The position numbers and the translations under genes were made by a program. The notes beneath the pieces were generated by a model. That model ran no database searches. It saw only the letters and a list, made by a program, of their open reading frames with translations, and was not told the DNA's origin. Below, one piece after another: positions 2,104 to 46,154 of a stretch of 64,000 bases of DNA (position 1 is the stretch's first letter; every line of letters starts with the position of its first letter). Source of the DNA: an uncultured Gammaproteobacteria bacterium (GTDB lineage: Bacteria; Pseudomonadota; Gammaproteobacteria; CAYGNG01); assembly GCA_964351225.1 (NCBI GenBank), contig CAYGNG010000007.1, positions 2,590 to 66,589 on the forward strand, read 5' to 3'.

Positions 2104-4299
2104 ATGGAGGATTTTCTCGATGATGTCTTGCTGGTTAGGCAACACGGTTTGCCAAGAATCTCCCGTTGGAATAAAACTATCGCAACCGGTGATCCGCTCA
2201 ATTTTAGGAGGCTCAGGTAATCGCTCTAAAATATTGGCGATTAACGCCTCGCTCACACTGCCACTTGAACGCCCCTCATCCACGATTAACACATATTTTT
2301 TATCTTTTATTTTAGGTAATAACGCATCCAAGGGCAGCGGCGCTAACCAATGCAAATCGATCACGGCGACAGAAATTTCATGGTCATTCCGTAAAATTTC
2401 AGCGGCTTGTTGCGACAGATAGCAACCATTGCCATAAGAAATAATAGCAAGTTCATCTGAAGCGCCATGCTGTGTGACCTCACCATAAACCATTTCCTCA
2501 TGCAATTCTGGATAGGTACATAACCACCGATTATCTCCTTTATCGAGAAAGTCTTTGGTCATATACAAAGCAATGGGTTCTAAAAACAAAACAATGCGCT
2601 GCTCAATATACGCCAACCGAACACAGGTTCGTAACAGTTTTACCGCATCGGCACCGTTGCTTGGACACGCAACAATAACGCCTGGCAAATCTCTTAATGC
2701 GGCCGTTGAGTTGTCATTATGAAAATGACCACCGAATCCTTTTTGATAACCTAAGCTCGCTATGCGTACGACCATGGGATTGGTGAATTGTTTATTGGAA
2801 AAAAATGACATTGTCGCTGCTTCACCGCGAATTTGATCTTGAGCATTATGATAATAGGCTAAAAACTGTATCTCTGGTATTGGTAAAAAACCATTATGTG
2901 CCAGGCCAATGGCATGACCGAGAATGGTCTGCTCATCTAAAAGTGTATCAAACACACGCCGCCTGCCAAATCGTGCTTGTAAATCCGCTGTTACGCGATA
3001 AACTCCGCCTTTTTGACCAACATCTTCACCAAAAATAACCATATTCTTATACTGCAGCATGAGATCCGTCAAAGCATAATTAATAAGCTGGCACATATTA
3101 CGAGGTGTATTTAACATTTTAAACTGCGTGCCAAATAACTTTTCTCTCTGTATTTTTTCGGGAATACTCGGGACCGATTTTTGCAACGGGTTAGGAATAA
3201 GACTTGCCATAACCGCTTCGGCCGTTGTCAATTTGGGTTCGAATAAAACCTCATCGGCCAATTGTTTAATGGTGGCTCGCAGTGACTCATATTTGTCGAT
3301 GATTTCTTGCGGTGACAACCACGCTTCATCGACACAAATTCGCGCAGAATGTAATAGTGGATCATTAGCCTCATCGGCTCGAATTGCCTGCTCCGTACGA
3401 TAATGCAACTCAACATCGGACCCGGCATGGCCTAACAAGCGTATGGTTTTCATATGTAAGAACACCGGAATTTTTTTCTTTCTTGCCAAATGGAACGCTT
3501 GATGGGCTGCCCAAACCACATTCGGTAAATGTAAGCCATCGGCAGCGATATAATGAAACAATGCGTGTTTAAATTTGGTTTCGATCCAAGATTTCGGGGT
3601 TGGCACGGAAATGCCCGTGCCATTGTCTTCACAAACAAAAACAATGGGCAAAGGATACTGGGCATGTCGGATCCACTCGGCTGTGTTAAAAGCCCCCAAA
3701 GCGGTACTGTGATTAACTGACGCATCACCAAAACTGCAGATTATCACACTGTCATCCGATAACACCCTATCGATATTAAGCTCTCGTGCCCGTTGAATTG
3801 AAAATGCGGTGGCAACGGCTTTAGGAAGATGCGAAGCAATCGTCGAAGTTTGTGGTGGGATGAGCATTTCCTTTGAACCGAATACTTTATGCCGACCACC
3901 TGAAGCCGGATCTTGTTTTGAAGCAACAAAAGATCGCAGTAAATCGCGTAAGATATTGGGATTGTTATATTTTAAGCTGCGCTGTATAAAAAATGCGGCA
4001 CTTCGGTAATGTAAAAATGACATATCCTGTATACCCGAAGCCAAGGCAATCGCGGCATTGCCTTCATGCCCGCTGCTTCCTATTGTATAAAAGGACTGAC
4101 CGGATTCTTTCAACGCTCTGGCAATAATATCCAGCAACCGGCTTGCCATCTGCGACTCAAAAAGCGATAAAAAAACATCCCTCGATAAGTTCGCTTGTGC
4201 AACCGTTGTTTGACTCGTTGCTGGCGGGAATTTTTCAGCAAGAACCGAGTCAACAAATTGCTTATCGACCACTTCAGCACGATTTAAATTTATGCCCAT
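2077..4299 (-). CDS. TPP-dependent 2-oxoacid dehydrogenase E1 component, fused alpha/beta subunits (740 aa)
   Basis: The N-terminal half carries a TPP-binding motif (SFGDASVNHSTALGAFNTAE...VCEDNG). The C-terminal half is transketolase-like beta (FGEDVGQKGGVYRVT, FDTLLDEQTILG, ACPSNGADAVKLLR). Confidence 0.8.
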   Translation of the reverse strand: MGINLNRAEVVDKQFVDSVLAEKFPPATSQTTVAQANLSRDVFLSLFESQMASRLLDIIARALKESGQSFYTIGSSGHEGNAAIALASGIQDMSFLHYRSAAFFIQRSLKYNNPNILRDLLRSFVASKQDPASGGRHKVFGSKEMLIPPQTSTIASHLPKAVATAFSIQRARELNIDRVLSDDSVIICSFGDASVNHSTALGAFNTAEWIRHAQYPLPIVFVCEDNGTGISVPTPKSWIETKFKHALFHYIAADGLHLPNVVWAAHQAFHLARKKKIPVFLHMKTIRLLGHAGSDVELHYRTEQAIRADEANDPLLHSARICVDEAWLSPQEIIDKYESLRATIKQLADEVLFEPKLTTAEAVMASLIPNPLQKSVPSIPEKIQREKLFGTQFKMLNTPRNMCQLINYALTDLMLQYKNMVIFGEDVGQKGGVYRVTADLQARFGRRRVFDTLLDEQTILGHAIGLAHNGFLPIPEIQFLAYYHNAQDQIRGEAATMSFFSNKQFTNPMVVRIASLGYQKGFGGHFHNDNSTAALRDLPGVIVACPSNGADAVKLLRTCVRLAYIEQRIVLFLEPIALYMTKDFLDKGDNRWLCTYPELHEEMVYGEVTQHGASDELAIISYGNGCYLSQQAAEILRNDHEISVAVIDLHWLAPLPLDALLPKIKDKKYVLIVDEGRSSGSVSEALIANILERLPEPPKIERITGCDSFIPTGDSWQTVLPNQQDIIEKILHSKVNARIS

Positions 4300-4802
4300 G
4301 AGGATGAACCAAACAATTCCAATTGCGACGATGAAACTGGTATAGGATGCGGGCTAACACTTGCTCTAATTGCTTCACCCTGAAACTCATCTATTGTTCT
4401 TAGATCGATATATTGACTGCACTTGTTTCTATGCGGCCGTTGCAGTGCTTGAGAGAGTAAAGAAATAACTTGTTGTGTTATTTTATCGCTTAGATACCGA
4501 TCTTGAGTTTGAAAAAAAAGCGGTTCGCGATCAGCAATATGACAAAATATGATTTTAGGGAATTCCAATTTTAGTCTGGTGTAGCTGAGCACACTGTTTG
4601 CCTCTTCTTCTTTGCTCATATCCACAATTAAAATTTCAGATTGATCAATTATTTTTTTTAATTCATCAATCTGTGACGGGTAATAGGTATCTAAAGACAG
4701 TTTTTTTACGACGGCGCCAAGGTTTGAAAAAATTTGTCCCACCCACGATGACCAAGCATAGGTATGGCTTAAATCAAGAACACGATAGAAACTGCTTAAC
4801 AT
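4290..4802 (-). CDS. Hypothetical protein, possibly a degenerate receiver-like domain
   Basis: A 170-aa ORF overlaps the E1 start by 10 nt, suggesting an operon. A weak CheY-like pattern is present (ILIVDMS...PKIIFC). Confidence 0.4.
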   Translation of the reverse strand: MLSSFYRVLDLSHTYAWSSWVGQIFSNLGAVVKKLSLDTYYPSQIDELKKIIDQSEILIVDMSKEEEANSVLSYTRLKLEFPKIIFCHIADREPLFFQTQDRYLSDKITQQVISLLSQALQRPHRNKCSQYIDLRTIDEFQGEAIRASVSPHPIPVSSSQLELFGSSSWA

Positions 4803-4924: not shown

Positions 4925-6154
4925 ATGAAAATATCATTACCGATCCCTAATTTGTTCAATCGATTGCAAAGCTTGCTGGATCCAATCAAGCCAACACCAC
5001 AATTGATGCAAACTTTACAAATTGGCAATCGTCTTGATGCCATTGTGCTCGGGCAACCAAAACTTGGCGTAACACATTTAGCTATCAATGGCGTTGTTGT
5101 TACCGTTAACTCGGGTATGTTGCAACTCACTCCCGGTCAAGGGCTGCAATTATTAGTGGCTGATCGGCAAGATCCGATTAAGTTGAGGATCTTAACCGAT
5201 TTATCGCAGCCAAACTCCATAAGCCAATTTCTGAAACAAGCATTACCCTTCCAAAATTCTTCATCGTGGTTGCTCACGAACTTATTATACTTGTCACAAA
5301 CACAACATACTAAATCCATGAATTTTGTACCAAGAGAGATTATTGCGCTCTGTCAAAAGCTCTTGCGTCAACTCCCCACGCGCAAATCCGTATCCACCGC
5401 CGATGGCTTAAAAAAAGCCTTGCTAAAAAGTGGTGCTTTTTTTGAAAAGCAATTGTTCTCTTGCCAAGATCCCTTACAACAACAGATAACCTTACGAGAA
5501 GATTTCAAAGCACTACGAATTCAACTTGAAAACGTACTTGAACAATTTCATGACGAATCGACAAGCCCGGAGTTAAAAACTTCCCCAATACGACTGCCAC
5601 AAACGCCACCGCCATTGAAACAAACCATGCCAACCGCACAAGGGCAAGTCGAAGCCACTGTCTTGCTCCTGGAAAAAAATGCAGACGCACTGATTATTGA
5701 ATTACTCGCTCAAGTTAAATCCAGCCTAGCAAGAACCCAGTTAACCCAATTGGCGTCTTTGTCATCTGAAAATCAAATGATACCGCTGTGGCTATTTGAA
5801 TTAGCTGTTAAAGAGCAAGCGCGTATTGATTTATTCCAAATTGAAATAGAACAAAACCGTAAAGAAATCGAGGATCCAGAGCAAAGCGCATGGTCAATCC
5901 GGATGGCATTTGATTTAGCCAATCTTGGCCCTTTGCAGGTCATCATGAAATGTCAGCGGTCGCAAATTTCTGTATTTTTTTTAACGGCTTTGCCCGAAAC
6001 GCGTGAAAAAATCAACCAAGACATTGAACACCTAACGCAATCATTTAAAGCACAGGGACTTCTACTAAAAGATGTGCACTGTGTAATTGGCAATCTTGAT
6101 AGAAAAAACAACCCACCGAGCCCTGATGGAACAATACTCAATGAAAAAGCATAA
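4925..6154 (+). CDS. fliK: Flagellar hook-length control protein FliK
   Basis: The N-terminus is Pro/Gln-rich and low-complexity. The C-terminal Flg_hook-like domain reads WSIRMAFDLANLGPLQVIMKCQRSQISVFF. The gene sits in the flagellar locus. Confidence 0.65.
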   Translation: MKISLPIPNLFNRLQSLLDPIKPTPQLMQTLQIGNRLDAIVLGQPKLGVTHLAINGVVVTVNSGMLQLTPGQGLQLLVADRQDPIKLRILTDLSQPNSISQFLKQALPFQNSSSWLLTNLLYLSQTQHTKSMNFVPREIIALCQKLLRQLPTRKSVSTADGLKKALLKSGAFFEKQLFSCQDPLQQQITLREDFKALRIQLENVLEQFHDESTSPELKTSPIRLPQTPPPLKQTMPTAQGQVEATVLLLEKNADALIIELLAQVKSSLARTQLTQLASLSSENQMIPLWLFELAVKEQARIDLFQIEIEQNRKEIEDPEQSAWSIRMAFDLANLGPLQVIMKCQRSQISVFFLTALPETREKINQDIEHLTQSFKAQGLLLKDVHCVIGNLDRKNNPPSPDGTILNEKA

Positions 6155-6434
6155 CGACCAATCTGAAATCGCCATCGCCTTGTCTTACGATGGTGAAAAT
6201 GCCCCAATCATCCGTGCAAAAGGTGAGGATGAATGGGCGATGCGTATCGTAGAAATTGCCAAACAGCATAATGTGCTTATTCATCAAGACCCGGTGCTTA
6301 CCAAAATTCTTTCGCAGCTCGCACTTGGTGAAGAAATTCCGGAATTTTTATATGTGAGCATTGCGACTATCATTGCGTTTGCCTACAAGCTGAACAACAA
6401 GTGTCCGCCTCATCGAAAAGATCTATCCTCATAA
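6141..6434 (+). CDS. FlhB C-terminal domain-like protein (short FlhB/YscU paralogue)
   Basis: MKKHNDQSEIAIALSYDGENAPIIRAKGEDEWAMRIVEIAKQHNVLIHQDPVLTKIL matches the FlhB cytoplasmic-domain pattern. The start is the ATG at 6141, which overlaps the fliK stop. Confidence 0.7.
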   Translation: MKKHNDQSEIAIALSYDGENAPIIRAKGEDEWAMRIVEIAKQHNVLIHQDPVLTKILSQLALGEEIPEFLYVSIATIIAFAYKLNNKCPPHRKDLSS

Positions 6435-6545
6435 CTTTTTCCATCACTGTCCACTTGTTGCTGCTCAACATTTACAGCTGGGGCTGCTAAAAATTAAAAT
6501 AGCTGATAGAATGCTCCTTGTTAGTGAAGTTCGGACCCGCATCTT

Positions 6546-7934
6546 ATGTTAATCAATCACACCCCATTCGTAAGCTTTTGCAAACAAGACAGCCCCTTCG
6601 CCAAGCAATTTGAAACAAATCGGGTATTAAATATTGCGACGCTTATTCAGCTGAAAAATTTTACCGAACGTTGCACGAACACAGAGCTGCATTCCGTTAT
6701 CATTAACGCGGAATCATCTCCCGATTGCGATTTTTTAATATTTCATTTTTTATTTCAACTTTTAATAATACTCGAGGAGAAGCCGACCCGCCTCAACGTA
6801 ACCGAGGAACAGGTCGCATTTACACTGAAAAGCAAATTTCAAATGAAGGGTTTTTTTACCCATAAATTTCTTGCGATGACGGCTGGCTTATACAATATCC
6901 AATTACCAGTTCGCCTTCCGATCGCTATCGATGAATATCACATTTTTTTAAAAGAGCTGATGTATCTTGATGATTTTGTTAAAGCATCCCCCACCATTCT
7001 TAACGAGATAACTTTTTTAAACAAATACCTTCACGCAGTTACCGGCTATACAGATATTTTGAGCTATCCGTCTCGGAGTGGGAGCTTACTTATTTGGGGG
7101 CATTCTCTGTCCAAAATCATTCAGGCAACCTGCGATTATATCCATACTTATTCTGAAGAAAAACCGGAACAACAGTGGCTGGTGGACAAAAATCGAGCCA
7201 TGCTTAACGCCTTTAAAAATTCCCTGATGGCGTCTCCCCGCGACAGCAAGCAAGAAACACTTTTTAAAAACCTCAATGAAAAATTTCGAGCCGTTATTGC
7301 GGCTCATTGTGAAGATAGTTGTCTTGCAGAAATCGATCTAACCCCTGGAAATGTTAGAAATCTCACACCGTCACAAGTGGCTTATCGCGCAAATTTACAA
7401 AGCATTCCAACCTTGGTGGGGTTGGCTGATTGCATTGCGCAATATCTTCAAAGATCCAATCCCAACCGAAGCAATTGCAATCCCAACATATTACAACGCG
7501 ATATTACTTTATCTTGGCTGCAAGTTATACTCACGGCGACACCCAACCCCGAGTTTACTGGAACATGGGAAGAACATTTATTTCATCTCATGATGGCTAG
7601 TTGCAACCCAACACTCATGTATAACGACCATCATGGAAGACCTTGCTTGGATAGCTGGCTCGGAAAAACATTTACACGCACCGCCCAAGCGATGATTTGC
7701 AAAACGCGCTTATACTTTTTAAACAACATATTAAACCATGAAATTTCACACCTAGATCCAAATGAGGCAATGGCTCGGTTACACCGCGTTAAAACGAATG
7801 TAATTTTCTGCCGGCATACGAGTTCTTTCTGGGGCGGAGGATTTGGTCGTACAGAACCGCTCTGTATCGCTGACAAAAAAATTGCTAGCATACAAAAAAC
7901 GTCTCATGTTCCCATGCGAAATCAGCGCTCATAA
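6546..7934 (+). CDS. Hypothetical protein, 462 aa, no recognisable domain
   Basis: The ORF is long and clean, with codon usage like its neighbours. It is convergent with the DUF2802 gene and overlaps it by 13 nt. Confidence 0.5.
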   Translation: MLINHTPFVSFCKQDSPFAKQFETNRVLNIATLIQLKNFTERCTNTELHSVIINAESSPDCDFLIFHFLFQLLIILEEKPTRLNVTEEQVAFTLKSKFQMKGFFTHKFLAMTAGLYNIQLPVRLPIAIDEYHIFLKELMYLDDFVKASPTILNEITFLNKYLHAVTGYTDILSYPSRSGSLLIWGHSLSKIIQATCDYIHTYSEEKPEQQWLVDKNRAMLNAFKNSLMASPRDSKQETLFKNLNEKFRAVIAAHCEDSCLAEIDLTPGNVRNLTPSQVAYRANLQSIPTLVGLADCIAQYLQRSNPNRSNCNPNILQRDITLSWLQVILTATPNPEFTGTWEEHLFHLMMASCNPTLMYNDHHGRPCLDSWLGKTFTRTAQAMICKTRLYFLNNILNHEISHLDPNEAMARLHRVKTNVIFCRHTSSFWGGGFGRTEPLCIADKKIASIQKTSHVPMRNQRS

Positions 7935-8326
7935 ACAGCAAGATTTGTCGGCGCTTTTTTCTTGTGCAGTTGGCATAACAATTCGGCCTCTGCATGTGTT
8001 ATCCCACAAACTTTTATAACCTCATCAAGACTCGCGCCGATCCGCAACATTTCGGTCGCTTGTTTATAGTAAGCGTTTTGGTTGGTTTCGGTATTCAGCT
8101 TAACCATGTCTTTTTGAGTGACAGCAACATCCGAAAAATGCTTTTCCATCTCGGCAATGCGCTTACTCACATTTGACAAGCTTCGGGTGAATACCCGGAT
8201 CTCCCTTACCAAGAGTTTATTGCTATTCTCCAATTGATTTTGCAAGCGATACAATCGAAATGCCAGCATGACGATGAACATCAAGCTTACTATACTTAAA
8301 GCCAGGTAGGCTGTTTCAGCTATCAC
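7922..8326 (-). CDS. DUF2802-family flagellar-locus protein
   Basis: An N-terminal TM helix is followed by a C-terminal LRIGASLDEVIKVCGITHAEAELL motif. This family commonly lies downstream of motAB or motCD. Confidence 0.55.
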   Translation of the reverse strand: MIAETAYLALSIVSLMFIVMLAFRLYRLQNQLENSNKLLVREIRVFTRSLSNVSKRIAEMEKHFSDVAVTQKDMVKLNTETNQNAYYKQATEMLRIGASLDEVIKVCGITHAEAELLCQLHKKKAPTNLAVYER

Positions 8327-9378
8327 TGTCTTACTCCTGTCGCCAAAGGGGGTTGCCCAGCCGTTGTGTCACGAAACGCGGGTTCTTTTTGTGCTGCTGG
8401 TTCCTGATTTTTCTGTTTTTCTGGTAAAAAATCCGCGGGCATTCGATTGTCCCCGGGTTGCAGTCTTAATGTTTTTAAATTTACAGCGATTTGATCATCT
8501 TCTATCGTATTCGTTTTTGATAAATGCCTCCTTGTATAGGGCCTCAGTCTATCGGTCAACTCTTCTGATAGTTCATCATTAAGCGCTATGATTAAAGATA
8601 CTCGCCTATTTTTCTTTCTTCCTTCATCCGTTTCATTGTTTCCAACTGGGTGTAATGCCCCGTATCCTACCGCCGTTAGTCGTGCTGAGTTAACCCCATA
8701 CTCTTCGAGCACGCGAACAACGGCAGCTGAACGAGCTGCAGAGAGTTCCCAATTAGAAGGAAAACCTTCGGTTTTAATAGGAATATTATCTGTGTATCCA
8801 GCGACCGAAATAGGGCCATTGTGCTTTTTTAAAATATCTGCAATCAATTCCAGCAAAGGCATAGCCGCATCTCGGGGATACGCACTAGCACTTGGGAAAA
8901 TGGAACGCATCTCAATTTCCAACCAGTCTTCGGAGCGACGCTCTTCAACTGTCTCAAGTGTGGTTCCAATCACTTGACTAAAGCCCAATGCCTCATTACT
9001 GTTATCCACATTGATGCCACCCGGATCTTCATTGTCTTTATTACCTATTTTGATTTCAAATTTGCCACGTAAATTATCTAATATCTCATCTATAACTTCT
9101 TCAAGCTGATCTTGGCTGTTAATCTTGCTGGCAATATGCTTAGCATGCTCATTAAGCGCAATATCATTCATGATTTTTTTTTCAATGTCTCTGGGATCAA
9201 GCTTATTAACTTCTTTAAAAGGAATATCCAGAACATGGAGCAGTGCTTTATATTTTTCTAAGCTTACATTGGTCACCGCATACATCACAACGAATACAGC
9301 AAACAATAGGGTAATAAAGTCAGCATATGAAACTAACCACCTATGCAAATTACTCTTTGACCCTTTACCTACTATCAT
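8323..9378 (-). CDS. motB: Flagellar motor protein MotB (OmpA-like C-terminal domain)
   Basis: The N-terminus has a TM segment (WLVSYADFITLLFAVFVVMY). The OmpA domain reads GYTDNIPIKT...NWELSAARSAAVVRVL...NRRVSLII. Confidence 0.85.
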   Translation of the reverse strand: MIVGKGSKSNLHRWLVSYADFITLLFAVFVVMYAVTNVSLEKYKALLHVLDIPFKEVNKLDPRDIEKKIMNDIALNEHAKHIASKINSQDQLEEVIDEILDNLRGKFEIKIGNKDNEDPGGINVDNSNEALGFSQVIGTTLETVEERRSEDWLEIEMRSIFPSASAYPRDAAMPLLELIADILKKHNGPISVAGYTDNIPIKTEGFPSNWELSAARSAAVVRVLEEYGVNSARLTAVGYGALHPVGNNETDEGRKKNRRVSLIIALNDELSEELTDRLRPYTRRHLSKTNTIEDDQIAVNLKTLRLQPGDNRMPADFLPEKQKNQEPAAQKEPAFRDTTAGQPPLATGVRQ

Positions 9379-10121
9379 TTTTCACCCACGAACCCTCTTA
9401 ACCGATTCTCAATTAATCGTGGATGCTCGCCTTCTGCAATAGCAGAAAATCCTTCAATAAACATTTCCCGAGTGCGAGTACGTCTATCCACATGAGCACG
9501 TAACTTGTGTGCTATAGGTAAAAAAATTAAATTTGCGAAACCAACACCATAAATAGTGGCCACAAACGCAACCGCTATGCCCGCACCCAGCTCAGTTGGA
9601 TCGCTCAAATTATCCATCACATGAATTAACCCCAACACAGTTCCTAATATGCCAATGGTTGGGCTATAGCCACCTAAACTTTCAAAAACACCTGTCGCTT
9701 CAATATCAAGATGTTGCTCACTTTGTAATTCAAACATCAAGGCAGAACGAACTTCTGATGCCGTGTTACCGTCAATTATTAACTCAAGTCCTTTCCTAAT
9801 AAAGCTGTCTTTTTCTTTTGGAATTTCCGATTCAATACTTAAAATACCTTCTTTTCTCGTGACGGTGCTGATCTCAACAATTCGTTTAACATTTTTTAAT
9901 AGATTGCTTTTAGGAGGCAAAACCATCCACTTAATGATTTTTAGTGATCGGAAAAATATTTTGCTTGGTGTTTGCAAAATAACAGCACCAAAACTCCCTC
10001 CAATTACAATTAAAAATGCTGAACCATTCACAAGATGGCTTAAATCACCACCTTCAATAGTTTGACCTATTGCTATGGCAATGAATGCTAAAAGTATTCC
10101 AAATATTGTTAGAAAATCCAT
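9375..10121 (-). CDS. motA: Flagellar motor stator protein MotA
   Basis: A four-TM MotA/TolQ/ExbB architecture is present. The start overlaps the end of motB. Confidence 0.85.
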   Translation of the reverse strand: MDFLTIFGILLAFIAIAIGQTIEGGDLSHLVNGSAFLIVIGGSFGAVILQTPSKIFFRSLKIIKWMVLPPKSNLLKNVKRIVEISTVTRKEGILSIESEIPKEKDSFIRKGLELIIDGNTASEVRSALMFELQSEQHLDIEATGVFESLGGYSPTIGILGTVLGLIHVMDNLSDPTELGAGIAVAFVATIYGVGFANLIFLPIAHKLRAHVDRRTRTREMFIEGFSAIAEGEHPRLIENRLRGFVGEK

Positions 10122-10136
10122 TATGGAATTCCTTAC

Positions 10137-10907
10137 CTATTTATCCATTATCCAAGTGGTCATTCTCGATTGTAAACGAATCATGGCTTGACTATGGATC
10201 TGACAAATCCTTGATTCGCTAACACCTAACACGTCACCAATCTCTTTAAGATTCAATTCTTCATCATAATACAAAGCCAATACCAACCGCTCTCTTTCAG
10301 GTAAACTTACAATTTCATCGGAAATCTTCTTTCTTAATCGCTCACGATGAACACCATCACATGGATCGCTAGGGGCGCCATTAAATCCATCTTGACTTGA
10401 CAACCCCTCTGCGCCTCCAAGCAAGTCATCCAGTCCATATAAACGAGATCCCGTGCTATCTAATAACATTTGATGATATTCACTAATAGACATCTGAAGC
10501 GCCTCAGCAACTTCGGCATCTTTTGCATCTCGACCTTTTGAGTGCTCTAATGTGCGGATGGTTTCTGAAATCATTCTTGAATTTTTATGCACAGAGCGCG
10601 GGACCCAATCTCCTTTGCGAACTTCGTCTAACATCATTCCTCGGATCCGAATCCCCGCATAAGTCTCAAAGCTTGCCCCTTTACTCTCATCGTAATTTTT
10701 TGCGGCTTCTAGTAAACCAATCATTCCAGCTTGCACTAAATCATCAACTAATATGGTATTAGGCAATCGCCCAATAAGGTGATGAGCTATTTTTTTTACC
10801 ATGGGTGCATGCTTTTCAACAATTTCACTCAAGGTTTTTTCTGTTGACTTGATTTTATTATACATTTCCAATCCATTTTCCATGCTATTTTCCCTATTAC
10901 TCAGCAT
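10137..10907 (-). CDS. fliA: Flagellar sigma factor FliA (sigma-28)
   Basis: Region 2 reads YAPMVKKIAHHLIGRLP...DLVQAGMIGLLEA. Region 4 reads LPERERLVLALYYDEELNLKEIGDVLGVSESRICQIHS. Internal ATGs at 10883 or 10865 may be the true start. Confidence 0.9.
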   Translation of the reverse strand: MLSNRENSMENGLEMYNKIKSTEKTLSEIVEKHAPMVKKIAHHLIGRLPNTILVDDLVQAGMIGLLEAAKNYDESKGASFETYAGIRIRGMMLDEVRKGDWVPRSVHKNSRMISETIRTLEHSKGRDAKDAEVAEALQMSISEYHQMLLDSTGSRLYGLDDLLGGAEGLSSQDGFNGAPSDPCDGVHRERLRKKISDEIVSLPERERLVLALYYDEELNLKEIGDVLGVSESRICQIHSQAMIRLQSRMTTWIMDK

Positions 10908-12965: not shown

Positions 12966-15071
12966 TTATTGACCAACCGATCCCACCACTTTCAACTGCT
13001 TGTTCTCAGGAACCTCTTGGTACGACAACACATGTATATTCATCGAGCTCATCCTCACAAATCGAGCAAGTAAATTTCTCAATTGTGGCGCCACTAATAA
13101 CACAGCGGGAAATCCTGCCACCTCTTGCCGCTGAGCAATCTCCATGATGGATCTTTGTAGTTTCTCCACCAATCCCGGTTCAAGACCCGATCCATCTTCG
13201 CCACCCACCTGTATAGCAGTAAGCAAGATGCGTTCCAATTCTGGCATAAGGGTAATCACAGGCAATTCATTTGATAACCCATTGATACTTTGTATAATTA
13301 ATCTATTGAGTGCAACCCGAACCGCAGCGGTTAAGACGTCAGAATCACGACTTCTGGGGCTTGTCTGTGCCAAAGTTTCGGCGATGGTTCTGACGTCGGT
13401 AATTGGAATTTGTTCACGTAATAGATTTTGCATAACCTGAACGATGGTTCCTAATGGTAAATTATCTGATGTGACTTCATCGGCGAGCTTTGGTGAGCTC
13501 ACACGCAGCTTCTCTAACAGATGTTGGCCTTCCTCATGTCCAAAGAGATCGGCGGCATTAGCCTTCATTACGTGACTAATATGGGTTGCTATTACCGTGC
13601 TGGGATCGACGACGGTATAGCCAAGTGATTGTGCATAATCTTTTTGTGCGCTTGCTATCCATTTTGCCTTAAGGCCAAAAGCTGGATCTTTCGCATTAAT
13701 TCCCTCGATATCACCAAATACTTGTCCGGGATTAATTGCTAATAATTTATCAATATGGATTTCCGATTCACTAATGGTTACTCCCATTAACGTAATACGA
13801 TAATGGCTCGGTGTTAATTCAAGATTATCACGAATGTGGACTGGCGGGATCAGGAAGCCTAACTCTTGTGAGAGTTTACGCCTAATACCCTTTATTCTTT
13901 CCATCAGTTTACCGCCTTGTTGTTTATCAACCAATGGAATGAGTCTATAACCAACCTCAAGACCCAAGGTATCGACGGGCACAACATCATCCCAAGACAA
14001 TTCGGATTTGGATTTACTTATTAACTCTTGATTTTGAGTTTTCTCTATTTCCTTGTGTTGTACTTCTTGTAAAGATCTAAGTGCTTTTTCATCTCGACGC
14101 TTGCTTATAAAATATCCTGCCGCGCCAACGCCAGCTGCCAAACTCAAAAAAGCAAAATGTGGCATATGAGGGATCAAGCCCAATGTTCCTAAAATTGAAG
14201 CGGTGACAAATAAAGACTTCGGCTTATCAAAAATTTGAATTAGTACTTGCGCTGAAACATCTTGCGAGGAAGAAACGCGAGTAACCATAATCGCAGCAGC
14301 AATTGACAGCAATAGCGAAGGAATTTGTGCAACCAAGCCATCGCCAATGGTTAGCAGCGCATAATTCTGCACAGCATGACCTACTGTCATGCTGTGTTGG
14401 AACGTACCAATTAATACCCCCCCGATTAAATTTATAAATAATATCAGTAAGCCTGCTATTGCATCGCCCCGAACAAACTTACTCGCACCATCCATTGAGC
14501 CGTAAAAATCCGCTTCATCTCGAACTTCCGCCCTTCGCCCTTTTGCTTCTTCTGCAGAAATAAGGCCCGCATTGAGATCAGCATCAATTGCCATTTGCTT
14601 ACCTGGCATTGCATCTAGCGTAAAACGCGCACTGACTTCAGAGATCCTGCCGGCACCTTTGGTAATAACAACAAAATTGATGATAACCAAGATAGCAAAT
14701 ACAACGAGCCCGACGGCATAGTTACCGCCGATAACAACCGAACCAAATGACTCGACCACTTTTCCCGCTGCACTTGTTCCCATGTGACCATTCAATAAGA
14801 CAACTCGGGTAGAAGCAATGTTTAATGCCAAGCGCAGCAAGGTTGAAACCAATAAGACGGTTGGAAACACACCGAACTCCAGCGGGCGGTTAGCGTAAAC
14901 ACAGGTTAGTAACACAACTAAAGATAGCGCTATATTAAATGAAAACAACAAATCCAAAATAAAAGGCGGCAGTGGTAATATCATCATAGCGAGCAGTGTG
15001 ACGATCAATACAGGGATCCCAATGCCTAATTTGAATTTATCGAAAATATTATTTGACACTAATGGCATCAT
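12966..15071 (-). CDS. flhA: Flagellar export apparatus protein FlhA
   Basis: A 701-aa product with an N-terminal polytopic membrane domain and a cytoplasmic domain typical of FlhA. Confidence 0.95.
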   Translation of the reverse strand: MMPLVSNNIFDKFKLGIGIPVLIVTLLAMMILPLPPFILDLLFSFNIALSLVVLLTCVYANRPLEFGVFPTVLLVSTLLRLALNIASTRVVLLNGHMGTSAAGKVVESFGSVVIGGNYAVGLVVFAILVIINFVVITKGAGRISEVSARFTLDAMPGKQMAIDADLNAGLISAEEAKGRRAEVRDEADFYGSMDGASKFVRGDAIAGLLILFINLIGGVLIGTFQHSMTVGHAVQNYALLTIGDGLVAQIPSLLLSIAAAIMVTRVSSSQDVSAQVLIQIFDKPKSLFVTASILGTLGLIPHMPHFAFLSLAAGVGAAGYFISKRRDEKALRSLQEVQHKEIEKTQNQELISKSKSELSWDDVVPVDTLGLEVGYRLIPLVDKQQGGKLMERIKGIRRKLSQELGFLIPPVHIRDNLELTPSHYRITLMGVTISESEIHIDKLLAINPGQVFGDIEGINAKDPAFGLKAKWIASAQKDYAQSLGYTVVDPSTVIATHISHVMKANAADLFGHEEGQHLLEKLRVSSPKLADEVTSDNLPLGTIVQVMQNLLREQIPITDVRTIAETLAQTSPRSRDSDVLTAAVRVALNRLIIQSINGLSNELPVITLMPELERILLTAIQVGGEDGSGLEPGLVEKLQRSIMEIAQRQEVAGFPAVLLVAPQLRNLLARFVRMSSMNIHVLSYQEVPENKQLKVVGSVGQ

Positions 15072-15084
15072 AATTAAACCCCAC

Positions 15085-16215
15085 CTACCGCTTTAAGTCA
15101 TCTGGAATTGGCAAGTCTTTAACTGTTTTTGGCTTTTTCGCCTTGCCTGCTTTATACATTCGGATCTGAAAAACATAAGCTAAAACCTGAGCCACTGCGA
15201 TATATAAGCCATACGGAATCTCCGCATTCAATTTCGTGCTGTGATAAATAGCCCTGGCTAATGGTGGCGCTGCAAAAAGTTCAACTTGATGTGCTTGTGC
15301 AACTTTAATAATATGGAGCGCCATATGATCCACCCCTCGAGCAATCACAATAGGCGCCCCATCAGATAACTGATCATATTTTAGTGCAACCGCATAGTGT
15401 GTTGGATTGGTTATGATGACGTCTGCTTGAGGCACGTCAGCCATCATCTTACGTTTAGAAACCTCTTCTTGTAATTGACGAATCTTCTGCTTAACTTCTG
15501 GTCGGCCCTCAACCTCCTTGTACTCATCTCTTAGCTCTTGACGCGTCATTTTTAGCTGTTTAGCGTTATCCCACAGCTGAAATGGAACATCGATAGCTGC
15601 AATAATAAACAATGAAAGCGACAAAATTAAGGTTGTCCACCCCAAAATATGCAATGCTTCAGCAACAGCTGGTTGCAAGGCGTATTTAGACAAATCCATA
15701 ATATGCTTGTGTTTAATATACAGTAAAGCAGTTGCAAACAGTAAGATCACCACAAATTTCCCAAGCGCTTTAACCAGCTCCATAAGCCCTTTCAAAGAAA
15801 ACATTCGTTTAAATCCACTGATGGGATCCAGCCGTTCAAGTTTAAAATTAATAATTGAGAAATTAACTCTAATGCCACCAAGCAACCCTGCACCAATTAG
15901 TGAAGCAAAAACCAAAATAATTAATATAGGCAAGATTGCTATGAGCATATGGGATATCGCAAAATAAAAATCTTGTAACATACTGCTGGTGGTAAATAGC
16001 TCATCCCGCTCTATCGTAAAAATGCTACGCATCATTGCCAATAATTTTTCGCCAACTTCCACGCCAAACGACAACAACATAAGCATCCCGACAAGTACAA
16101 CAAATGCGGTATTTAACTCCTTGGAACGAGGGATCTGACCCTTGTCACGGGCTTCACTGCGTCGCTTCTCTGTCGGCTCTTCTGTTCGTTCTTGGCTGCT
16201 ATCTTCATCTGACAT
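15085..16215 (-). CDS. flhB: Flagellar export apparatus protein FlhB
   Basis: The N-terminus reads EEPTEKRRSEARDKGQIPRSKEL. The NPTH autocleavage motif is present (ITNPTHYAVALKYD). Confidence 0.95.
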   Translation of the reverse strand: MSDEDSSQERTEEPTEKRRSEARDKGQIPRSKELNTAFVVLVGMLMLLSFGVEVGEKLLAMMRSIFTIERDELFTTSSMLQDFYFAISHMLIAILPILIILVFASLIGAGLLGGIRVNFSIINFKLERLDPISGFKRMFSLKGLMELVKALGKFVVILLFATALLYIKHKHIMDLSKYALQPAVAEALHILGWTTLILSLSLFIIAAIDVPFQLWDNAKQLKMTRQELRDEYKEVEGRPEVKQKIRQLQEEVSKRKMMADVPQADVIITNPTHYAVALKYDQLSDGAPIVIARGVDHMALHIIKVAQAHQVELFAAPPLARAIYHSTKLNAEIPYGLYIAVAQVLAYVFQIRMYKAGKAKKPKTVKDLPIPDDLKR

Positions 16216-16997
16216 TACTTACCCCCGCCAGATAACCAAGCATCAATCGTCATAAACCCCATAGACAGCACGGCTTCAACTTGTGGAATGATATTTGATA
16301 ATAAGAAATAGACCACAAACAAGCCAATGACTAACGTGATAGGAAACCCGATGGTGAAAATATTTAACTGTGGCGCTGAACGGGTAAGAATGCCAAATGA
16401 AATATTAATAATGAGCAAAGCGACTATCGCCGGCAACGCCATAGAAATGGCTCCGGCAAACATCGAGGATCCCAGCAGGATGATATCCCAAAAATGATTT
16501 TTAGAGAAAACACTTTCTCCAATAGGAAAAGCCACAAAACTATTTGATATGAGTTTTATTAACTCTAAATGACCGTTAAATGCCAAAAATAGCAATGTCA
16601 CTATAATTAAATATAACTGGCTAATCAGCGGCACAGTCAGGCCACTTTGTGGGTCAACCATGGATGCAAATCCAAGACCGGCTTGCATGGCTATCAGTTG
16701 GGATCCAATCACAAAGGTCTGTAATAAAATCAAAAAAACAAACCCGATGGACAGTCCAATTAATAACTCTTGGCTAATAATAAAAAAACCATTTAAAGAA
16801 ATAATATCAATCTTAGGTATATTCGATATCGTCGACGAAACAGGAATGGTAACAATCATGCAAATAAGCAGACGCATTCGCGCTGGCAATAAACCTGAAT
16901 CAAAAACTGGTGCCACAAGCATCATCCCACCAACTCTTATCAATGGCAAAATTAGTAAATTAATCCATTTCATAAGGTCACTATATAATAAATCCAT
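16215..16997 (-). CDS. fliR: Flagellar export apparatus protein FliR
   Basis: A 260-aa polytopic membrane protein lying between fliQ and flhB. Confidence 0.9.
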   Translation of the reverse strand: MDLLYSDLMKWINLLILPLIRVGGMMLVAPVFDSGLLPARMRLLICMIVTIPVSSTISNIPKIDIISLNGFFIISQELLIGLSIGFVFLILLQTFVIGSQLIAMQAGLGFASMVDPQSGLTVPLISQLYLIIVTLLFLAFNGHLELIKLISNSFVAFPIGESVFSKNHFWDIILLGSSMFAGAISMALPAIVALLIINISFGILTRSAPQLNIFTIGFPITLVIGLFVVYFLLSNIIPQVEAVLSMGFMTIDAWLSGGGK

Positions 16998-19858: not shown

Positions 19859-20464
19859 CTATTGCACCACAAATTTTGTAAACAATACCGTTTCAATCTT
19901 GCTGCCTGAGCCTTGTTCTTTTAGAACTTTATTTATCGCATCAGCGCATTCCATTCGTAAGCTGTCTTTGCCAGCGATTGTTGACAATTGATCATAACTT
20001 TTGTTAGAAAATAGATTATTTAAGTCATTGCGAATAAGTGGTGAATGCAGCTCAACATCATCAATTGCCGACTGTTCTCGCGCAAGAACAGATACATCAA
20101 TTTCTAGATATAATTTTTTATATGTCGATGTTTGGAGTCTAACAATAAATGAAGGCTTAATGTTGTAGTATAGCGCTTTGGGTTTAGTTGCTATCGACGA
20201 CTTCTCCTCCACAGTGATTGGCGGCGATTCATCGCTAACCGCTGACTCATCTTTGCCACCAATAAATAGCAGTACCACGACTCCGAGTACGATACATACT
20301 ATTACGATGACTACCGACAACAGGATTATCTTTTTCTTAGATTTTTTTACCGATGCTTCAGAGGTATTGGCATTATTATCATCCCCGGCTCCTTTGCGAT
20401 TGCTTTCAGTTGATTCTTGCTCTGTTGCCTCTTGATCCTTTGCTTTGAATTTTTTCTTAGCCAT
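19859..20464 (-). CDS. fliL: Flagellar basal-body-associated protein FliL
   Basis: A single-TM protein that is the first gene of the cluster. The start is set to the ATG at 20464, which has a GGAGA RBS 7 nt upstream. Confidence 0.7.
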   Translation of the reverse strand: MAKKKFKAKDQEATEQESTESNRKGAGDDNNANTSEASVKKSKKKIILLSVVIVIVCIVLGVVVLLFIGGKDESAVSDESPPITVEEKSSIATKPKALYYNIKPSFIVRLQTSTYKKLYLEIDVSVLAREQSAIDDVELHSPLIRNDLNNLFSNKSYDQLSTIAGKDSLRMECADAINKVLKEQGSGSKIETVLFTKFVVQ

Positions 20465-20707
20465 TTCTATCTCCATATAGATAGCTATAGCTAACCGAGC
20501 AAACTCCATGCCAATTGAGATTCATCGATTAAATCAACGAGATAGAAACTTTTAACGGTATAAATAAAATCAAAGTCGATAATTTGACAAATAAGATAAT
20601 TGAACGGATTGCTTTTCGTCGATTTATTGACATCGGGCTGTTCGATGGCTAAATCGATAACGAGTCACCCAACGCGTGCAGAAACATCAAAAATATAACC
20701 CTGGTGC

Positions 20708-21322
20708 TTACCGAGTATAAATCGGCTCTCTTGGGAAAAGTACACTTAATTTTTTAGCCTCTTCAGCGCTGAAATGCAGTTTATGTACTGCATGATGCCC
20801 AGCTAAAATATTTTTATTGAATTTAATCTTGTTTTCAATTGCTTGCAGCTCTGTCGATAAATGCGCAACGCGGCTGTTCATATTTCTCCCTATCGCCGTG
20901 CGATAAGCGTGATCTTGTGCATTTACGCTATGCGTGTTGTTTAGATGGTTAGCGATTTTTGCTTGAAAAGATTGGGCTAATTTTAACTGCTTGGCAAGCT
21001 TACGTTGTTTAGACAATAACGCGGTTAACGCTTGCTGATAGTATTCCTGCTCTTTGCTGTCGCGATTATCCCCTGCCGGCTCTCTTTGGGGTACTATGGG
21101 TTTCCTATGGGCAGCGGAATTTTCTGCATACTCGCCTTGATATTGGTGTACTTTCGTCTCGGGAAAATCTTGGATTTTTATTTTTACCTCTTGCTTTGCA
21201 CCAGAGATATGCCTATCAGAAAATACGACACCGCCATCTTGTTGTTTGGCTTTAAAAACCGTGATAGCAAAAGAAGGAGAAAAAAAACTCCATAACAGAA
21301 ACACGATAGCGATTTTTCTCAT
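20708..21322 (-). CDS. Secreted DUF4124-like protein
   Basis: A signal peptide is followed by VFKAKQQDGGVVFSD. The rest is low-complexity and coiled-coil-like. The start is trimmed to the ATG at 21322. Confidence 0.45.
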   Translation of the reverse strand: MRKIAIVFLLWSFFSPSFAITVFKAKQQDGGVVFSDRHISGAKQEVKIKIQDFPETKVHQYQGEYAENSAAHRKPIVPQREPAGDNRDSKEQEYYQQALTALLSKQRKLAKQLKLAQSFQAKIANHLNNTHSVNAQDHAYRTAIGRNMNSRVAHLSTELQAIENKIKFNKNILAGHHAVHKLHFSAEEAKKLSVLFPREPIYTR

Positions 21323-21462
21323 AGCCCGGCCTGCCGCAGTTGTAATATCTATACAGAGTATATACCCATCGCACACCCATGTAACCTTACAATGGTTCCG
21401 GGTTTGACGGTGTGCTCACGTTGACATTGGCGTCTAGAAAGAAAGTATCAACCGGCCCGGCA

Positions 21463-22174: not shown

Positions 22175-22606
22175 ATGTCTGAATTAAATCGACTCTGTTC
22201 AAAATTAAAGACAGGTGATCCCGACCAAAAGGCAATCAACGCCTTTTATCTCGCCCTCCTTAAAACTGATCTCTATATTCCCTGCTTTGCAATAAATGAG
22301 AAACCATCCGATGACAATAGCGAACCATGGCACCCATTATTTATCAAACAGGAAGATAGCTATTTTATAACGGCTTTCGATAATCTCGATCGGCTGCATT
22401 CATGGGCAAACATTGAACTTGATGGTATCGAAATTGTCAAAATGGTTGGCAAAACGCTATTTCCACGATTAACGGAGCACGTTCAGTTGAGCCTGTTTAT
22501 GGGTAAAGATATTCACAAAGTTTTTGCACCAGATGAAATTCATCACGTGCAAAAAATCATTCAAAAAATAAACTCTTTGACATTGGAAGTGCAAAAAAAC
22601 AACTGA
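22175..22606 (+). CDS. Hypothetical protein, SseB-like
   Basis: A 143-aa product with the pattern FYLALLKTDLYIPC...FITAFDNLDRLHSW. The start is preceded by a TATAAT -10 element at 22133-22138. Confidence 0.35.
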   Translation: MSELNRLCSKLKTGDPDQKAINAFYLALLKTDLYIPCFAINEKPSDDNSEPWHPLFIKQEDSYFITAFDNLDRLHSWANIELDGIEIVKMVGKTLFPRLTEHVQLSLFMGKDIHKVFAPDEIHHVQKIIQKINSLTLEVQKNN

Positions 22607-30846: not shown

Positions 30847-31227
30847 TTATTTCGGTTGAAAACGAATCTCAGCTGGCATATTGTCACATGATTTACGAGC
30901 GGCAAGAATTCTCAACCACCGATTCCGCATCTGATACGCTTGCACTTCGATACGCTGCGACTCAGAAAAGTCCATAAAAAACCACGGCACAATAAAAAAA
31001 GCTCCAGCAACCCCTAAAGTGATATTGCGTAGATCTTTATTTTCGCCAGGGATCATGTTAAGAATTTCTGTTTGATTATCCAGGATTTCATGCAAAATTT
31101 GCGTGCACGTCAACTGCTCATCACCGACTTGATACTGTTCGATCGGATGCGCACTCCTCCCGGCACAAGCAACGCAACTACTTATAATCATCAAACTGAT
31201 TAAGACCAATTTTCTAACGCTATTCAT
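30847..31227 (-). CDS. Small lipoprotein, hypothetical
   Basis: The lipobox reads [15 protein letters not shown]. The gene occupies the slot held by pabC in E. coli. The start is trimmed to the ATG at 31227, which overlaps the fabF stop by 8 nt. Confidence 0.4.
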
Positions 31228-32461
31228 ATTGTTTGAAAACCAATGACGCGTTTGTTCCACCAAAGCCAAACGAATTTGATAAGGCCACTTTTATTTTTCG
31301 TGATTGCGCCACGTGCGGTACAAAGTTTAAATCGCAGTTTGCTGTTGGGTTATCTAGATTTATTGTTGGTGGCGCCACTTGATCGCGAATGGCTAATACC
31401 GAAAAAATGGCCTCAACTGCCCCAGCGGCTCCTAATAAGTGCCCCGTCATAGACTTAGTCGAGCTGACAGCAAGGGCATAAGCGTGTTCACCAAAAACGG
31501 TTTTTATTGCCAATACTTCCAATTCATCTCCCGCTAAGGTCGAAGTGGCATGCGCATTAATGTAATCAACTTCTTCGGGTTGCAGTTTCGCATCTGTAAT
31601 GGCGTTGCGCATAGCATTGGCTGCACCGGTTCCCGTTTGATCCGGTAAAGTAATATGAAATGCATCTGCACTTTGGCCAAATCCAAGCAATTCTGCGTAG
31701 ATTTTGGCACCGCGCTTTTTAGCAAATTCATACTCCTCTAATACCAGAACCCCTGCGCCATCACCCAAGACAAATCCATCGCGATCGCTATCCCAGGGTC
31801 TGCTGGCTTTGGTCGGTTCATCGTTTCTTTTGGAAAGTGCTCGTAATGCCGAAAACCCAGCAACACCAAGCGCAGAAGAAGCTTTTTCCGCACCACCAGC
31901 AAGCATAATATCGGCATCACCATAAGCCACAGCGCGAGCAGCGTAACCGATATTATGGGCCCCTGTCGTACACGCACTGACAACCGAAATGTTTGGTCCT
32001 TTTAAACCATAGCGCATCGATACTCGCCCTGGGAGCATGTTAATAATGATTGAAGGAATGAAGAAAGGAGACAGCTTTTTAGGTCCTTGCTCTAACAAAA
32101 CCGTATACGCTTTTTCAATTCCAAGCAAACCACCAATACCAGAACCAATGGCCACACCGGCTCGTGAACCACGCTCTGCATCGATCGTTAAATTGGCGTC
32201 AGTCATTGCCTCAATAGCAGCGGCCATCCCAAATTGAATAAAAGGATCTATTTTACGCAACTCTTTCGCATCAAAATATTGGATCGGATCAAAGTTTTTA
32301 ACTCGCGCTGAAATCTTTGTGCCTAACTCACTTACGTTGAAATCTTGGATCACGCCAACGCCACTTTTGCCTTGCTTAACATTTCCCCAAGTATCAGAAA
32401 CATTCAAACCAAGCGGAGAGATAATTCCCATGCCTGTTACCACAACTCGACGACCCTGCAT
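31220..32461 (-). CDS. fabF: 3-oxoacyl-ACP synthase II
   Basis: The Cys-His-His catalytic triad context is present. The C-terminus reads [11 protein letters not shown]. Confidence 0.95.
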
Positions 32462-44741: not shown

Positions 44742-46154
44742 TTAGGGATTTTTTGCTGAAGCGCTCTCTGTTACTTCGCTTTCCTCCAATTCCTCTTTTT
44801 GTTGCAATTCAGATAATACGTCATCAAATAAGCCTAATAGCAAGTGACCATTTGGCTTTTTCCTTATTACTTCTTCTTTATTGCGAATTAGAGTGCTTTT
44901 TTTCGTTTTTTCAGCCGCAACAATTTGGCGGATAGTAAATGAAAGAAAGTCAAAACTTTTTTTATCGAGATTAGGATCTCTATTTTTAAGTTTCTTCTTA
45001 ATATCCGTAAGCGATCCCAGCTCGGCTTCATCGTCGAGTTTGCGTTTAAAAATACCGAGCTCGGAGAGTCGTTTTGCTTCCTCTTTTTGATCGGCTTGTG
45101 CCGCTAATCGCGCTTGGGCTTGAGTATAATCAACCACTCCTCTTATTTCCTGTGGTGAGCAGGTTGAATAAATACTATTTAGAATAAAAAGATCCTCTAA
45201 CAATGCTTTCCGACGGTCATCTGTCACACTCAACAGATGAGATACAATGCTGGGCCCATCAGCTGGGTGCAATGAAAAATTCCCACCAAAATAACACAGC
45301 GCGCGGATTGCATCGAGGTCCGGTCGATTTCCAGCAATATAAGCAAAAATCTCACGATATAATGCGGTTTTGCCATCAACTAATTCATTCGGATCCGTAA
45401 GACCTTTTTCACTAATACGCACAGGAATACTGTCGCCAAATAGCGTGGGCGCACCGCGCAAGAGCTCCATCTCATGCAGTGAATGCGTATTAGCACTCCT
45501 GCTGTTTGACACAAGCTGTGCAGACTGGCCAAGTTTAAATTCCGCCTCTTGTTGCAAGCCTTTTTCAATCTGTTTTCCTTTAGAGCGACGATCGGCAACA
45601 CCGTACTTTTGGCAGATATCGTTCGCTTGATCAGGGCGATTGGCTGCGTGTAACAAATCGACAACATTCGCGCCATCTTTCCCGACACGAGAGAATCCCG
45701 CACCATAATCATGCAAATAACCCAAAAGATAAAATTTTCTTTGTTTAGCGGCTAAATTTGCTGGTTGTTCCCGGCAACGATCCACTGAGTAAAAATTGAA
45801 ATCAACACCACGCTGATATAAACAAGCAAATAATTTATTGATTATCGCGACTGTCGACCGATGGGGAAGCAAGGGCGATCGATGAATAACGTAGTCTAAA
45901 ATATCGGCATCAGCAATTATCTGCTTGTTTTCTTGCAGTATCCAATCAAGTACCGGCAAAAGCTTGCTGGTCACGCCCTCAGATAGCGCTACTGCTCGAT
46001 CGTTAGCGCCAGCCTCTTCTAAAAATTGATCCGCGTACTGTTCGACAAGGTAACGAACATCGGGAACCGATATGCGGTACCCTGAAGCAATCAACTGATT
46101 GGGATCAAAAGAATTTTCGCCGGTAACTAACCCATTGATAATGGCTTTAAACAT
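44742..46154 (-). CDS. Hypothetical protein, 470 aa, with a Glu-rich C-terminal tail
   Basis: No domain is recognisable. The C-terminus reads LSELQQKEELEESEVTESASAKNP. The stop abuts the TPK stop with a 0-bp spacer. Confidence 0.5.
   Translation of the reverse strand: MFKAIINGLVTGENSFDPNQLIASGYRISVPDVRYLVEQYADQFLEEAGANDRAVALSEGVTSKLLPVLDWILQENKQIIADADILDYVIHRSPLLPHRSTVAIINKLFACLYQRGVDFNFYSVDRCREQPANLAAKQRKFYLLGYLHDYGAGFSRVGKDGANVVDLLHAANRPDQANDICQKYGVADRRSKGKQIEKGLQQEAEFKLGQSAQLVSNSRSANTHSLHEMELLRGAPTLFGDSIPVRISEKGLTDPNELVDGKTALYREIFAYIAGNRPDLDAIRALCYFGGNFSLHPADGPSIVSHLLSVTDDRRKALLEDLFILNSIYSTCSPQEIRGVVDYTQAQARLAAQADQKEEAKRLSELGIFKRKLDDEAELGSLTDIKKKLKNRDPNLDKKSFDFLSFTIRQIVAAEKTKKSTLIRNKEEVIRKKPNGHLLLGLFDDVLSELQQKEELEESEVTESASAKNP

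Follow-up and report, generated by a model that had tools for sequence, protein, structure and literature searches.

We have analyzed a 64,000-nucleotide stretch of contig CAYGNG010000007.1 from an uncultured gammaproteobacterium (the window, by which we mean the whole of this DNA) and, within it, an orphan gene that we call X (protein P0001) located inside a flagellar gene cluster. On the forward strand X follows a gene with a C-terminal hook-length (Flg_hook) domain and a homologue of the C-terminal domain of FlhB, and it runs against a DUF2802 gene, the last of a long minus-strand operon. The coordinates are collected in Table 1. A former reading made from the letters alone (the sequence-only reading) had described a clean open reading frame (ORF) of 462 amino acids, placed between the fliK and FlhB C-domain genes and the motAB-fliA-flhA block and overlapping the DUF2802 gene by 13 nt at the 3' ends. 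Coordinates, strand, ATG and TAA all hold, the neighbours are by Pfam those claimed, the overlap is as described and DUF2802 is indeed the last gene of the fliL...motB operon. The FliK protein of the window matched the FliK2 type of Pseudomonas putida at E=5e-19, and the canonical FliK that adjoins fliL at E=0.04. The pair upstream of X is of the fliK2-flhX type and the DUF2802 gene is fipA (flrD), so that X occupies the meeting point of two converging units, fliK2-flhX and ...motA-motB-fipA. In P. putida, a FliA-dependent operon whose role is not known is made up of fliK2 (PP_4328), a fliK paralogue, and flhX (PP_4329), and it occupies one end of the flagellar cluster (bioRxiv 10.1101/2021.08.29.457346). 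FipA, the same protein as FlrD, is a DUF2802 membrane protein that recruits FlhF to the pole, and its gene ends the flhF/flhG operon (PMC11620751).

Table 1. Features of the window, positions counted from its first letter
Feature	Position	Strand	Basis or remark
Gene X (P0001), orphan coding sequence	6546..7934	+	ORF list, translation; 462 amino acids, ATG start, TAA stop
X N-terminal half, residues 1-223	6546..7214	+	unalignable with N-terminal part of P0125
X conserved C-terminal domain, residues 224-450	7215..7895	+	sole part common to P0125
Convergent 3' overlap X/fipA	7922..7934		13 nt, from ORF coordinates
Extended -10 promoter-like element TGATAGAAT	6504..6512	+	33 nt upstream of X ATG
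Candidate sigma-70-like site TTTACA-N18-TAAAAT	6471..6500	+	10/12 matches, consensus scan
fliK2-type gene, 409 amino acids	4925..6154	+	Pfam PF02120 Flg_hook, C-terminal
flhX (FlhB C-terminal-domain homologue), from its probable start	6141..6434	+	PF01312 positions 260-334; TIGR00789 flhB_rel
fipA/flrD (DUF2802)	7922..8326	-	PF10975; last gene of fliL...flhA-flhF-fleN-fliA-motA-motB operon
motB	8323-9378	-	Pfam, NCBIfam
motA	9375-10121	-	Pfam, NCBIfam
fliA	10137-10907	-	Pfam, NCBIfam
fleN, flhF, flhA, flhB, fliR...fliM, fliL	further upstream, to ~20.5 kb	-	Pfam, NCBIfam
ORFs without significant Pfam family	44742-46154, 46205-46888, 59655-61517, 61475-62386	-	Pfam
ORFs without significant Pfam family	52860-53510, 20708-21376, 30847-31269, 4290-4802	-	Pfam

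X is a genuine protein-coding gene. The two alternative forward frames that overlap it contain 24 and 25 stops and, at 41% GC, an open frame of 462 codons is far beyond chance. Its GC content (0.415), GC at third codon positions (0.416) and codon adaptation index (CAI, 0.705, taking the recognisable genes of the window as reference) fall inside the range of the window genes, with CAI values of 0.704 for the neighbouring fliK and 0.689 for the FlhB-like gene. There is no compositional sign of a recent transfer. We considered a mobile-element footprint at X and discarded it, as there were no tRNAs, repeats were only at chance level and the composition was not anomalous. The Shine-Dalgarno (SD) sequence is weak (-3.2 kcal/mol), as it is in many bona fide genes of the window.

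We looked for homologues of X in 5.8 billion clusters by a word-indexed search and, exhaustively with phmmer, in 1.84 billion representatives. The word-indexed search, using X as a single sequence, retrieved only X itself, while phmmer retrieved one relative, P0125 (519 amino acids, E=1.8e-7). A profile made with both proteins found no third member in the 5.8 billion clusters, and there were no further homologues in two JGI metagenome scans, none in plasmid and phage collections (tblastn) and no paralogues within the window. The known members of the family are therefore P0001 and P0125 only, among about 15 billion predicted proteins. Neither Pfam nor NCBIfam gave any family for X at E<=0.1, as the absence of recognisable domains claimed by the sequence-only reading had anticipated, and P0125 was likewise without family. 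Nothing significant was found for either protein in PADLOC (no family for either at E<=1) or PHROGs, and sequence and profile searches of the PDB with X gave only noise (E>=0.07). Specifically, X did not match the flagellar families Flg_hook (PF02120), Bac_export_2 (PF01312) or DUF2802, and by Pfam it is without GGDEF, EAL and PF20178 domains. At the sequence level the X family is new and unclassifiable against everything searched.

The similarity between the two members is restricted to their C-terminal parts. BLASTP aligned residues 224-450 of X with 284-507 of P0125 (28% identity over 235 amino acids, pairwise E=2e-16), and tblastn of P0125 onto the window gave a match at 7215-7895. Compared with shuffled sequences, the C-terminal parts reached z=26 and the N-terminal parts, by Smith-Waterman, z=0.5, that is, an undetectable similarity. 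Invariant in the C-terminal domain are H362 H363 P366 D369 G373 and, further on, H424 T425 F428 W429 G431 F433 R435 T436 E437. A domain of ~230 residues with the motifs [DN]HHxxPxxD...G and HTxxFW.xGxFxRTE defines the family, and both members have it. Two other likenesses were dropped: the HExxH of X (HEISH, 398-402) is not conserved in P0125, and a relation of the HH motif to HD-GYP had no support from Pfam. The two proteins are soluble, with no transmembrane segment in X (maximum KD19 1.58) and no signal peptide by inspection. AlphaFold2 (AF2) produced all-helical and unusable models, with a predicted local distance difference test (pLDDT) score of 37 for X alone and 34 with the two-sequence alignment. 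A Foldseek search of the PDB with the low-confidence model gave no match at E<0.1, the model being too poor for this result to carry weight. In these models the N-terminus of X appears coil-like, and that of P0125 is of low complexity. Remote homology and structure prediction, the checks advised by the sequence-only reading, have thus provided one relative and no confident fold.

P0125 comes from a 6.3-kb contig (L005) of the Logan assembly of SRR14610198, and its gene is found in the same surroundings. The contig carries a 175-aa gene (-), fliK2 (+), flhX (+), P0125 (+), a convergent fipA (-), and the stator genes motB (-) and motA (-), matching the window in order and orientation, so that both members of the family are located 3' of flhX, on the same strand and convergent with fipA. 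In both genomes collinearity holds for the whole block, starting at the gene of 170 codons upstream of fliK2 and ending with motA. The identities between window and contig were 83% for MotA, 65% for FlhX, 62% for MotB, 40% for FliK2, 33% for FipA, 27% for the upstream 170-aa protein and 28% for X, in its C-terminal half only, indicating that the two genomes are distant. The presence of an intact P0125 in a distant genome, together with the constrained C-terminal domain, argues that X is a functional gene. The same contig helped with the start of flhX. The ORF in the window is open from a TTG at 6087 and has an in-frame ATG at 6141; residue 11 of the FlhX of the contig aligns to residue 29 of the longer version, and the start is probably ATG 6141 and not TTG 6087.

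We also examined the relatives of the window by means of FlhA. The closest homologue was 76% identical (a 5-kb contig) and the next were at most 69% identical; the best named genera were Pleionea, Aliikangiella and Thiohalobacter, at ~64-66% identity. In three loci with 66-67% FlhA identity (L003, L004 and L088) the operon ends at fipA and is followed by unrelated co-directional genes, with neither X nor fliK2-flhX at that end.

In order to see what lies at this junction elsewhere, we scanned the GTDB genomes with a MotB alignment (a scan with the single MotB sequence gave no match) and placed fipA, flhX and fliK2 in the loci by tblastn before measuring the junction. At least 80 loci were obtained, mostly from Pseudomonas and at ~40% identity. 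The convergent junction was found in Pseudomonas, Halopseudomonas, Stutzerimonas, Marinobacter and Methylophaga, and also in a Thiotrichales metagenome-assembled genome (MAG), a Methylococcaceae MAG and one further MAG. Among the 52 junction loci listed, the two 3' ends abut in 28 (gap <350 bp, no gene between), a single small ORF (95-181 amino acids, on the fipA strand) is present in 13, and 11 have larger genes unrelated to X. Three of the 13 small ORFs were scanned for families, giving one rhodanese, one DUF6622 and one without family. No occupant of the junction showed a resemblance to X, whether by tblastn, phmmer, hmmsearch or hhalign. Some weak collinear tblastn matches of X in Pseudomonas loci (at ~2.0-2.3 kb) turned out to fall inside flhF with E ~0.4-1 and were discarded as chance.

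The larger occupants are diverse. Six loci of the P. putida group (L006, L008, L009, L010, L012, L014) carry directly 3' of flhX and on its strand, at ~13.5-19.3 kb in each locus, one or two proteins of 910-990 amino acids with ToxA_N and TcdA/TcdB-like glycosyltransferase domains. In L008 and L010 these genes, which have the strand of flhX, begin ~55-115 nt downstream of it, and one may ask whether they share a transcript with the FliA-dependent fliK2-flhX. A short G.F.RT.P likeness of X to ToxA_N was dropped, its hhalign probability being 0.6%. One Pseudomonas locus (L031:13659-15343, minus strand) has in the slot an AAA_21/AAA_15 ATPase and DUF4276 pair, which we take to be PARIS-type defence-like, and its gap also holds a 159-aa ORF without Pfam family. 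In P. putida PSE7 (L049) we found on the fipA strand a 448-aa P-loop ORF (13865-15211) with a homologue in L020, where no flhX match was obtained by tblastn. The PSE7 locus has apparently two flhX-type ORFs downstream of fliK2 (15260-15649 and 16257-16844, minus strand). In Methylophaga the gene on the flhX strand codes for a REC-GGDEF-EAL protein (L056:13419-15260, L068:13482-15359 and L079:12060-13904, all on the minus strand), and in L056 it overlaps fipA by 4 nt at the 3' ends. Most simply, the 3' ends would have abutted in the ancestral state, and the junction would have gained unrelated genes repeatedly. As it holds unrelated genes or none elsewhere, position alone does not make X flagellar.

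The expression signals were compared in both loci. Co-transcription of X with the fliK-strand genes across a gap of 111 bp had been proposed by the sequence-only reading. The gap is real (6435-6545, from the flhX stop at 6434 to the X ATG), contains no terminator-like site and has a less stable fold than shuffled versions of itself (z=+1.7), so that read-through from fliK2-flhX is possible, yet both members bear an extended -10 of their own. In the Logan contig the element TGATATTAT is located at 2370-2378, 32 nt before ATG 2411 (codon M15 of P0125), nearly the distance found for X. The chance of an extended -10 at matching distance in shuffled spacers was about 0.011, and the two spacers are otherwise unalignable. 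We infer from this that X may be expressed from its own sigma-70-type extended -10 promoter. The region that includes the sigma-70-like site at 6471-6500 had three such sites, fewer than the mean of eight in the shuffles, which makes this site a candidate only. Upstream of X or fliK2 we found no sigma-28 site (TAAAG-N14-16-GCCGATAA-type) with at least 11/13 matches, although the consensus may be weaker or lineage-specific here, and no sigma-54 consensus at the threshold used. Regarding P0125, the SD sequence of ATG 2411 (GAGG, -5.6 kcal/mol) is better than that of the called start at ATG 2369 (-3.4 kcal/mol), and because of this the protein probably has 505 amino acids, starting at M15. The called start overlaps the extended -10-like element.

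Our preferred reading, to which we give about even confidence, is that X would be a lineage-restricted orphan in a variable accessory-gene slot of the polar-flagellum cluster, coding for a soluble helical protein with a constrained C-terminal module, probably with its own promoter and probably not involved in flagellar structure or assembly. The ancestral junction would have consisted of the abutting 3' ends of the fliK2-flhX and ...fliA-motA-motB-fipA operons, where a gene was gained on the flhX strand in a common ancestor of the two organisms, that of the window and that of the Logan contig. The protein would be cytoplasmic, soluble and for the most part helical, with an N-terminal half that diverges fast, and the ~230-residue C-terminal domain, with its invariant His, Asp, Arg, Glu and Trp, would be the likely working module, binding or catalytic. 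Transcription would probably start at the sigma-70 extended -10, with read-through from fliK2-flhX as a further possibility. X appears likelier to be a lineage-specific accessory factor than a structural or assembly part of the flagellum. The two-member family, the absence in the relatives with 66-67% FlhA identity and the variable junction favour this insertion. The sequence-only reading had offered a flagellum-associated or exported protein and a lineage-specific insertion side by side; the family size and the variable slot speak for the insertion, while flagellar association has only the position of the gene in its favour. A flagellar role of X is possible but unsupported beyond that position.

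Several observations weigh against the preferred reading. The sole relative keeps the gene in this position and on the strand of flhX, the spacers between flhX and the gene are short in both loci (111 bp and about 76-118 bp) and lack a terminator-like fold, and X may be co-transcribed with a flagellar operon, one that is FliA-dependent in P. putida. There is no positive evidence of any biochemical activity of X. The survey was dominated by Pseudomonas among the at least 80 loci listed. Besides, the REC-GGDEF-EAL protein of Methylophaga is plausibly a motility regulator in the slot of X, acting through cyclic di-GMP (c-di-GMP), which indicates that the occupants of the slot are not always unrelated to motility. 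With only two genomes, and the whole block collinear in both, the conserved position is evidence neither for nor against a flagellar linkage.

The alternative that survives best, although we regard it as rather unlikely, is that X is a lineage-specific flagellar accessory of FliK2/FlhX (a partner, chaperone, regulator or substrate) belonging to a fliK2-flhX-X operon. X shares the strand of flhX and begins 111 bp downstream across a spacer without terminator-like site or stable fold, and the arrangement is kept in the Logan contig. The identity of its C-terminal domain, taken here as 34%, is comparable to those of FipA (33%) and FliK2 (40%), and a partner is conceivable for a fliK2-flhX pair that is itself uncharacterised. 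However, 28 of the 52 fliK2-flhX loci listed are without a gene there and the others have unrelated ones, indicating that a partner of this kind is not generally required by FliK2/FlhX. The lack of similarity of X to any flagellar family and the conserved extended -10, which suggests independent expression, argue in the same direction.

Another reading, suggested by analogy with the toxin genes of the slot but in our view doubtful, is that X is secreted and acts as an effector or toxin-like protein on another cell (a host, grazer or competitor), delivered by the flagellar type III secretion system (T3SS) or another secretion system. This idea draws on the ToxA_N and glycosyltransferase genes directly 3' of flhX in six Pseudomonas loci, on the modular organization of X (a conserved domain with invariant polar residues and a fast-diverging remainder), on the low-complexity stretch of roughly 50 residues at the N-terminus of P0125 and on the other long ORFs without Pfam family among the housekeeping genes of the window. 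But hhalign gave the X family a probability below 1% against the slot toxins, X has no match to toxin, effector or defence families, no immunity-like small ORF adjoins it and there is no evidence of a secretion system in the window. Less probable still, X might be a cargo or partner of the FliK2-FlhX module, which would set an alternative specificity state of the flagellar type III export gate, the genes directly downstream of flhX (X and the ToxA_N toxins) coding for non-flagellar proteins exported or regulated by way of that state. If this were true, X, from a gammaproteobacterial lineage not studied so far, would open a new class of effectors that depend on the flagellar T3SS.

Finally, a non-functional X, whether spurious or the remnant of a decaying gene that stayed open by chance, would agree with the weak SD, the lack of a confident AF2 fold and the unconserved N-terminal half, but we consider it very improbable given the 462 open codons at 41% GC against 24-25 stops in the alternative frames, an SD strength inside the range of bona fide window genes and the intact homologue of 505-519 amino acids, which shows that the gene is not the degraded pseudogene considered by the sequence-only reading and which keeps a significant C-terminal similarity though MotA is just 83% and FliK2 40% identical.

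Returning to the preferred reading of X as a lineage-restricted orphan, the rest of the window provides some context. From ~21 to 64 kb it contains housekeeping genes together with several ORFs lacking a Pfam family. In total, eight unassignable ORFs of 140-620 amino acids are scattered among the housekeeping genes, making X one of many such genes in this genome. The one upstream of fliK2 (170 amino acids) had only a weak, sub-threshold match to CoA_transf_3. The window's best sigma-28-like site (46945-46919, minus strand, TAAAG-N14-GCCGATAT, 12/13 matches) lies just upstream of the 227-aa ORF at 46205-46888, a gene outside the flagellar cluster and a candidate for dependence on FliA. An SseB N-terminal-like domain (PF07179, E=6e-6) is present in a protein of 143 amino acids at 22175-22606 (+), the gene of which is flanked by thioredoxin-like and Bax-inhibitor genes. 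At the far end of the flagellar operon there is no canonical fliK upstream of fliL, the gene found there being the 222-aa ORF at 20708-21376 (-) without Pfam family; the fliK2-type gene may consequently be the sole hook-length ruler near the cluster. The operon's first ORF (19859-20509, with a FliL-like product) has a listed start that overlaps a sigma-54-like TGGCATGGAGTTTGCT at 20513-20498 (-), and its true start may be located further downstream.

The novelty of the X family is that of an unclassifiable sequence. Orphan genes are common, and a new mechanism is not thereby shown. What the comparison does reveal is that unrelated genes have repeatedly settled at the flhX/fipA junction across gammaproteobacteria, namely toxins, the pair that we take to be PARIS-like, c-di-GMP enzymes and orphans. 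Such a recurrent slot is a warning not to deduce the function of a gene from its place in a flagellar cluster. The junction loci provide in addition a concrete set for asking whether the genes downstream of flhX are co-regulated with FliK2/FlhX. We see this recurrent accessory slot as a useful caution and a modest lead.

Among known systems, the closest to X is P0125, its sole detectable homologue and itself uncharacterised. It differs in its N-terminal ~280 residues, unalignable with X and including the low-complexity stretch, and its locus differs by a 33-bp gap between P0125 and fipA instead of the 13-nt overlap of the window. The ToxA_N (PF20178)/glycosyltransferase toxins share with X the slot and the orientation, convergent with fipA, but they are of 910-990 amino acids, have recognisable toxin domains and gave hhalign probabilities of 0.2-0.6%. 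The Methylophaga REC-GGDEF-EAL proteins share slot and strand, with a known c-di-GMP architecture made of domains that X does not have. The 448-aa ORF of P. putida PSE7 is near X in size and located at the junction, but it is encoded on the fipA strand, has a Walker-A-like GAPGAGKT and shows no similarity to X. PP_4330 of P. putida KT2440, placed by its gene number between flhX (PP_4329) and flrD (PP_4331), is like X an uncharacterised ORF of similar size at the flhX/flrD junction, without sequence similarity to X, and it could not be linked to flagellar function in the P. putida study (bioRxiv 10.1101/2021.08.29.457346). As for the FliK2-FlhX pair, known from P. putida (PP_4328/PP_4329) and, for FlhX, from Helicobacter pylori (HP1575), X is homologous to neither protein and adjoins the counterparts of both in the window.

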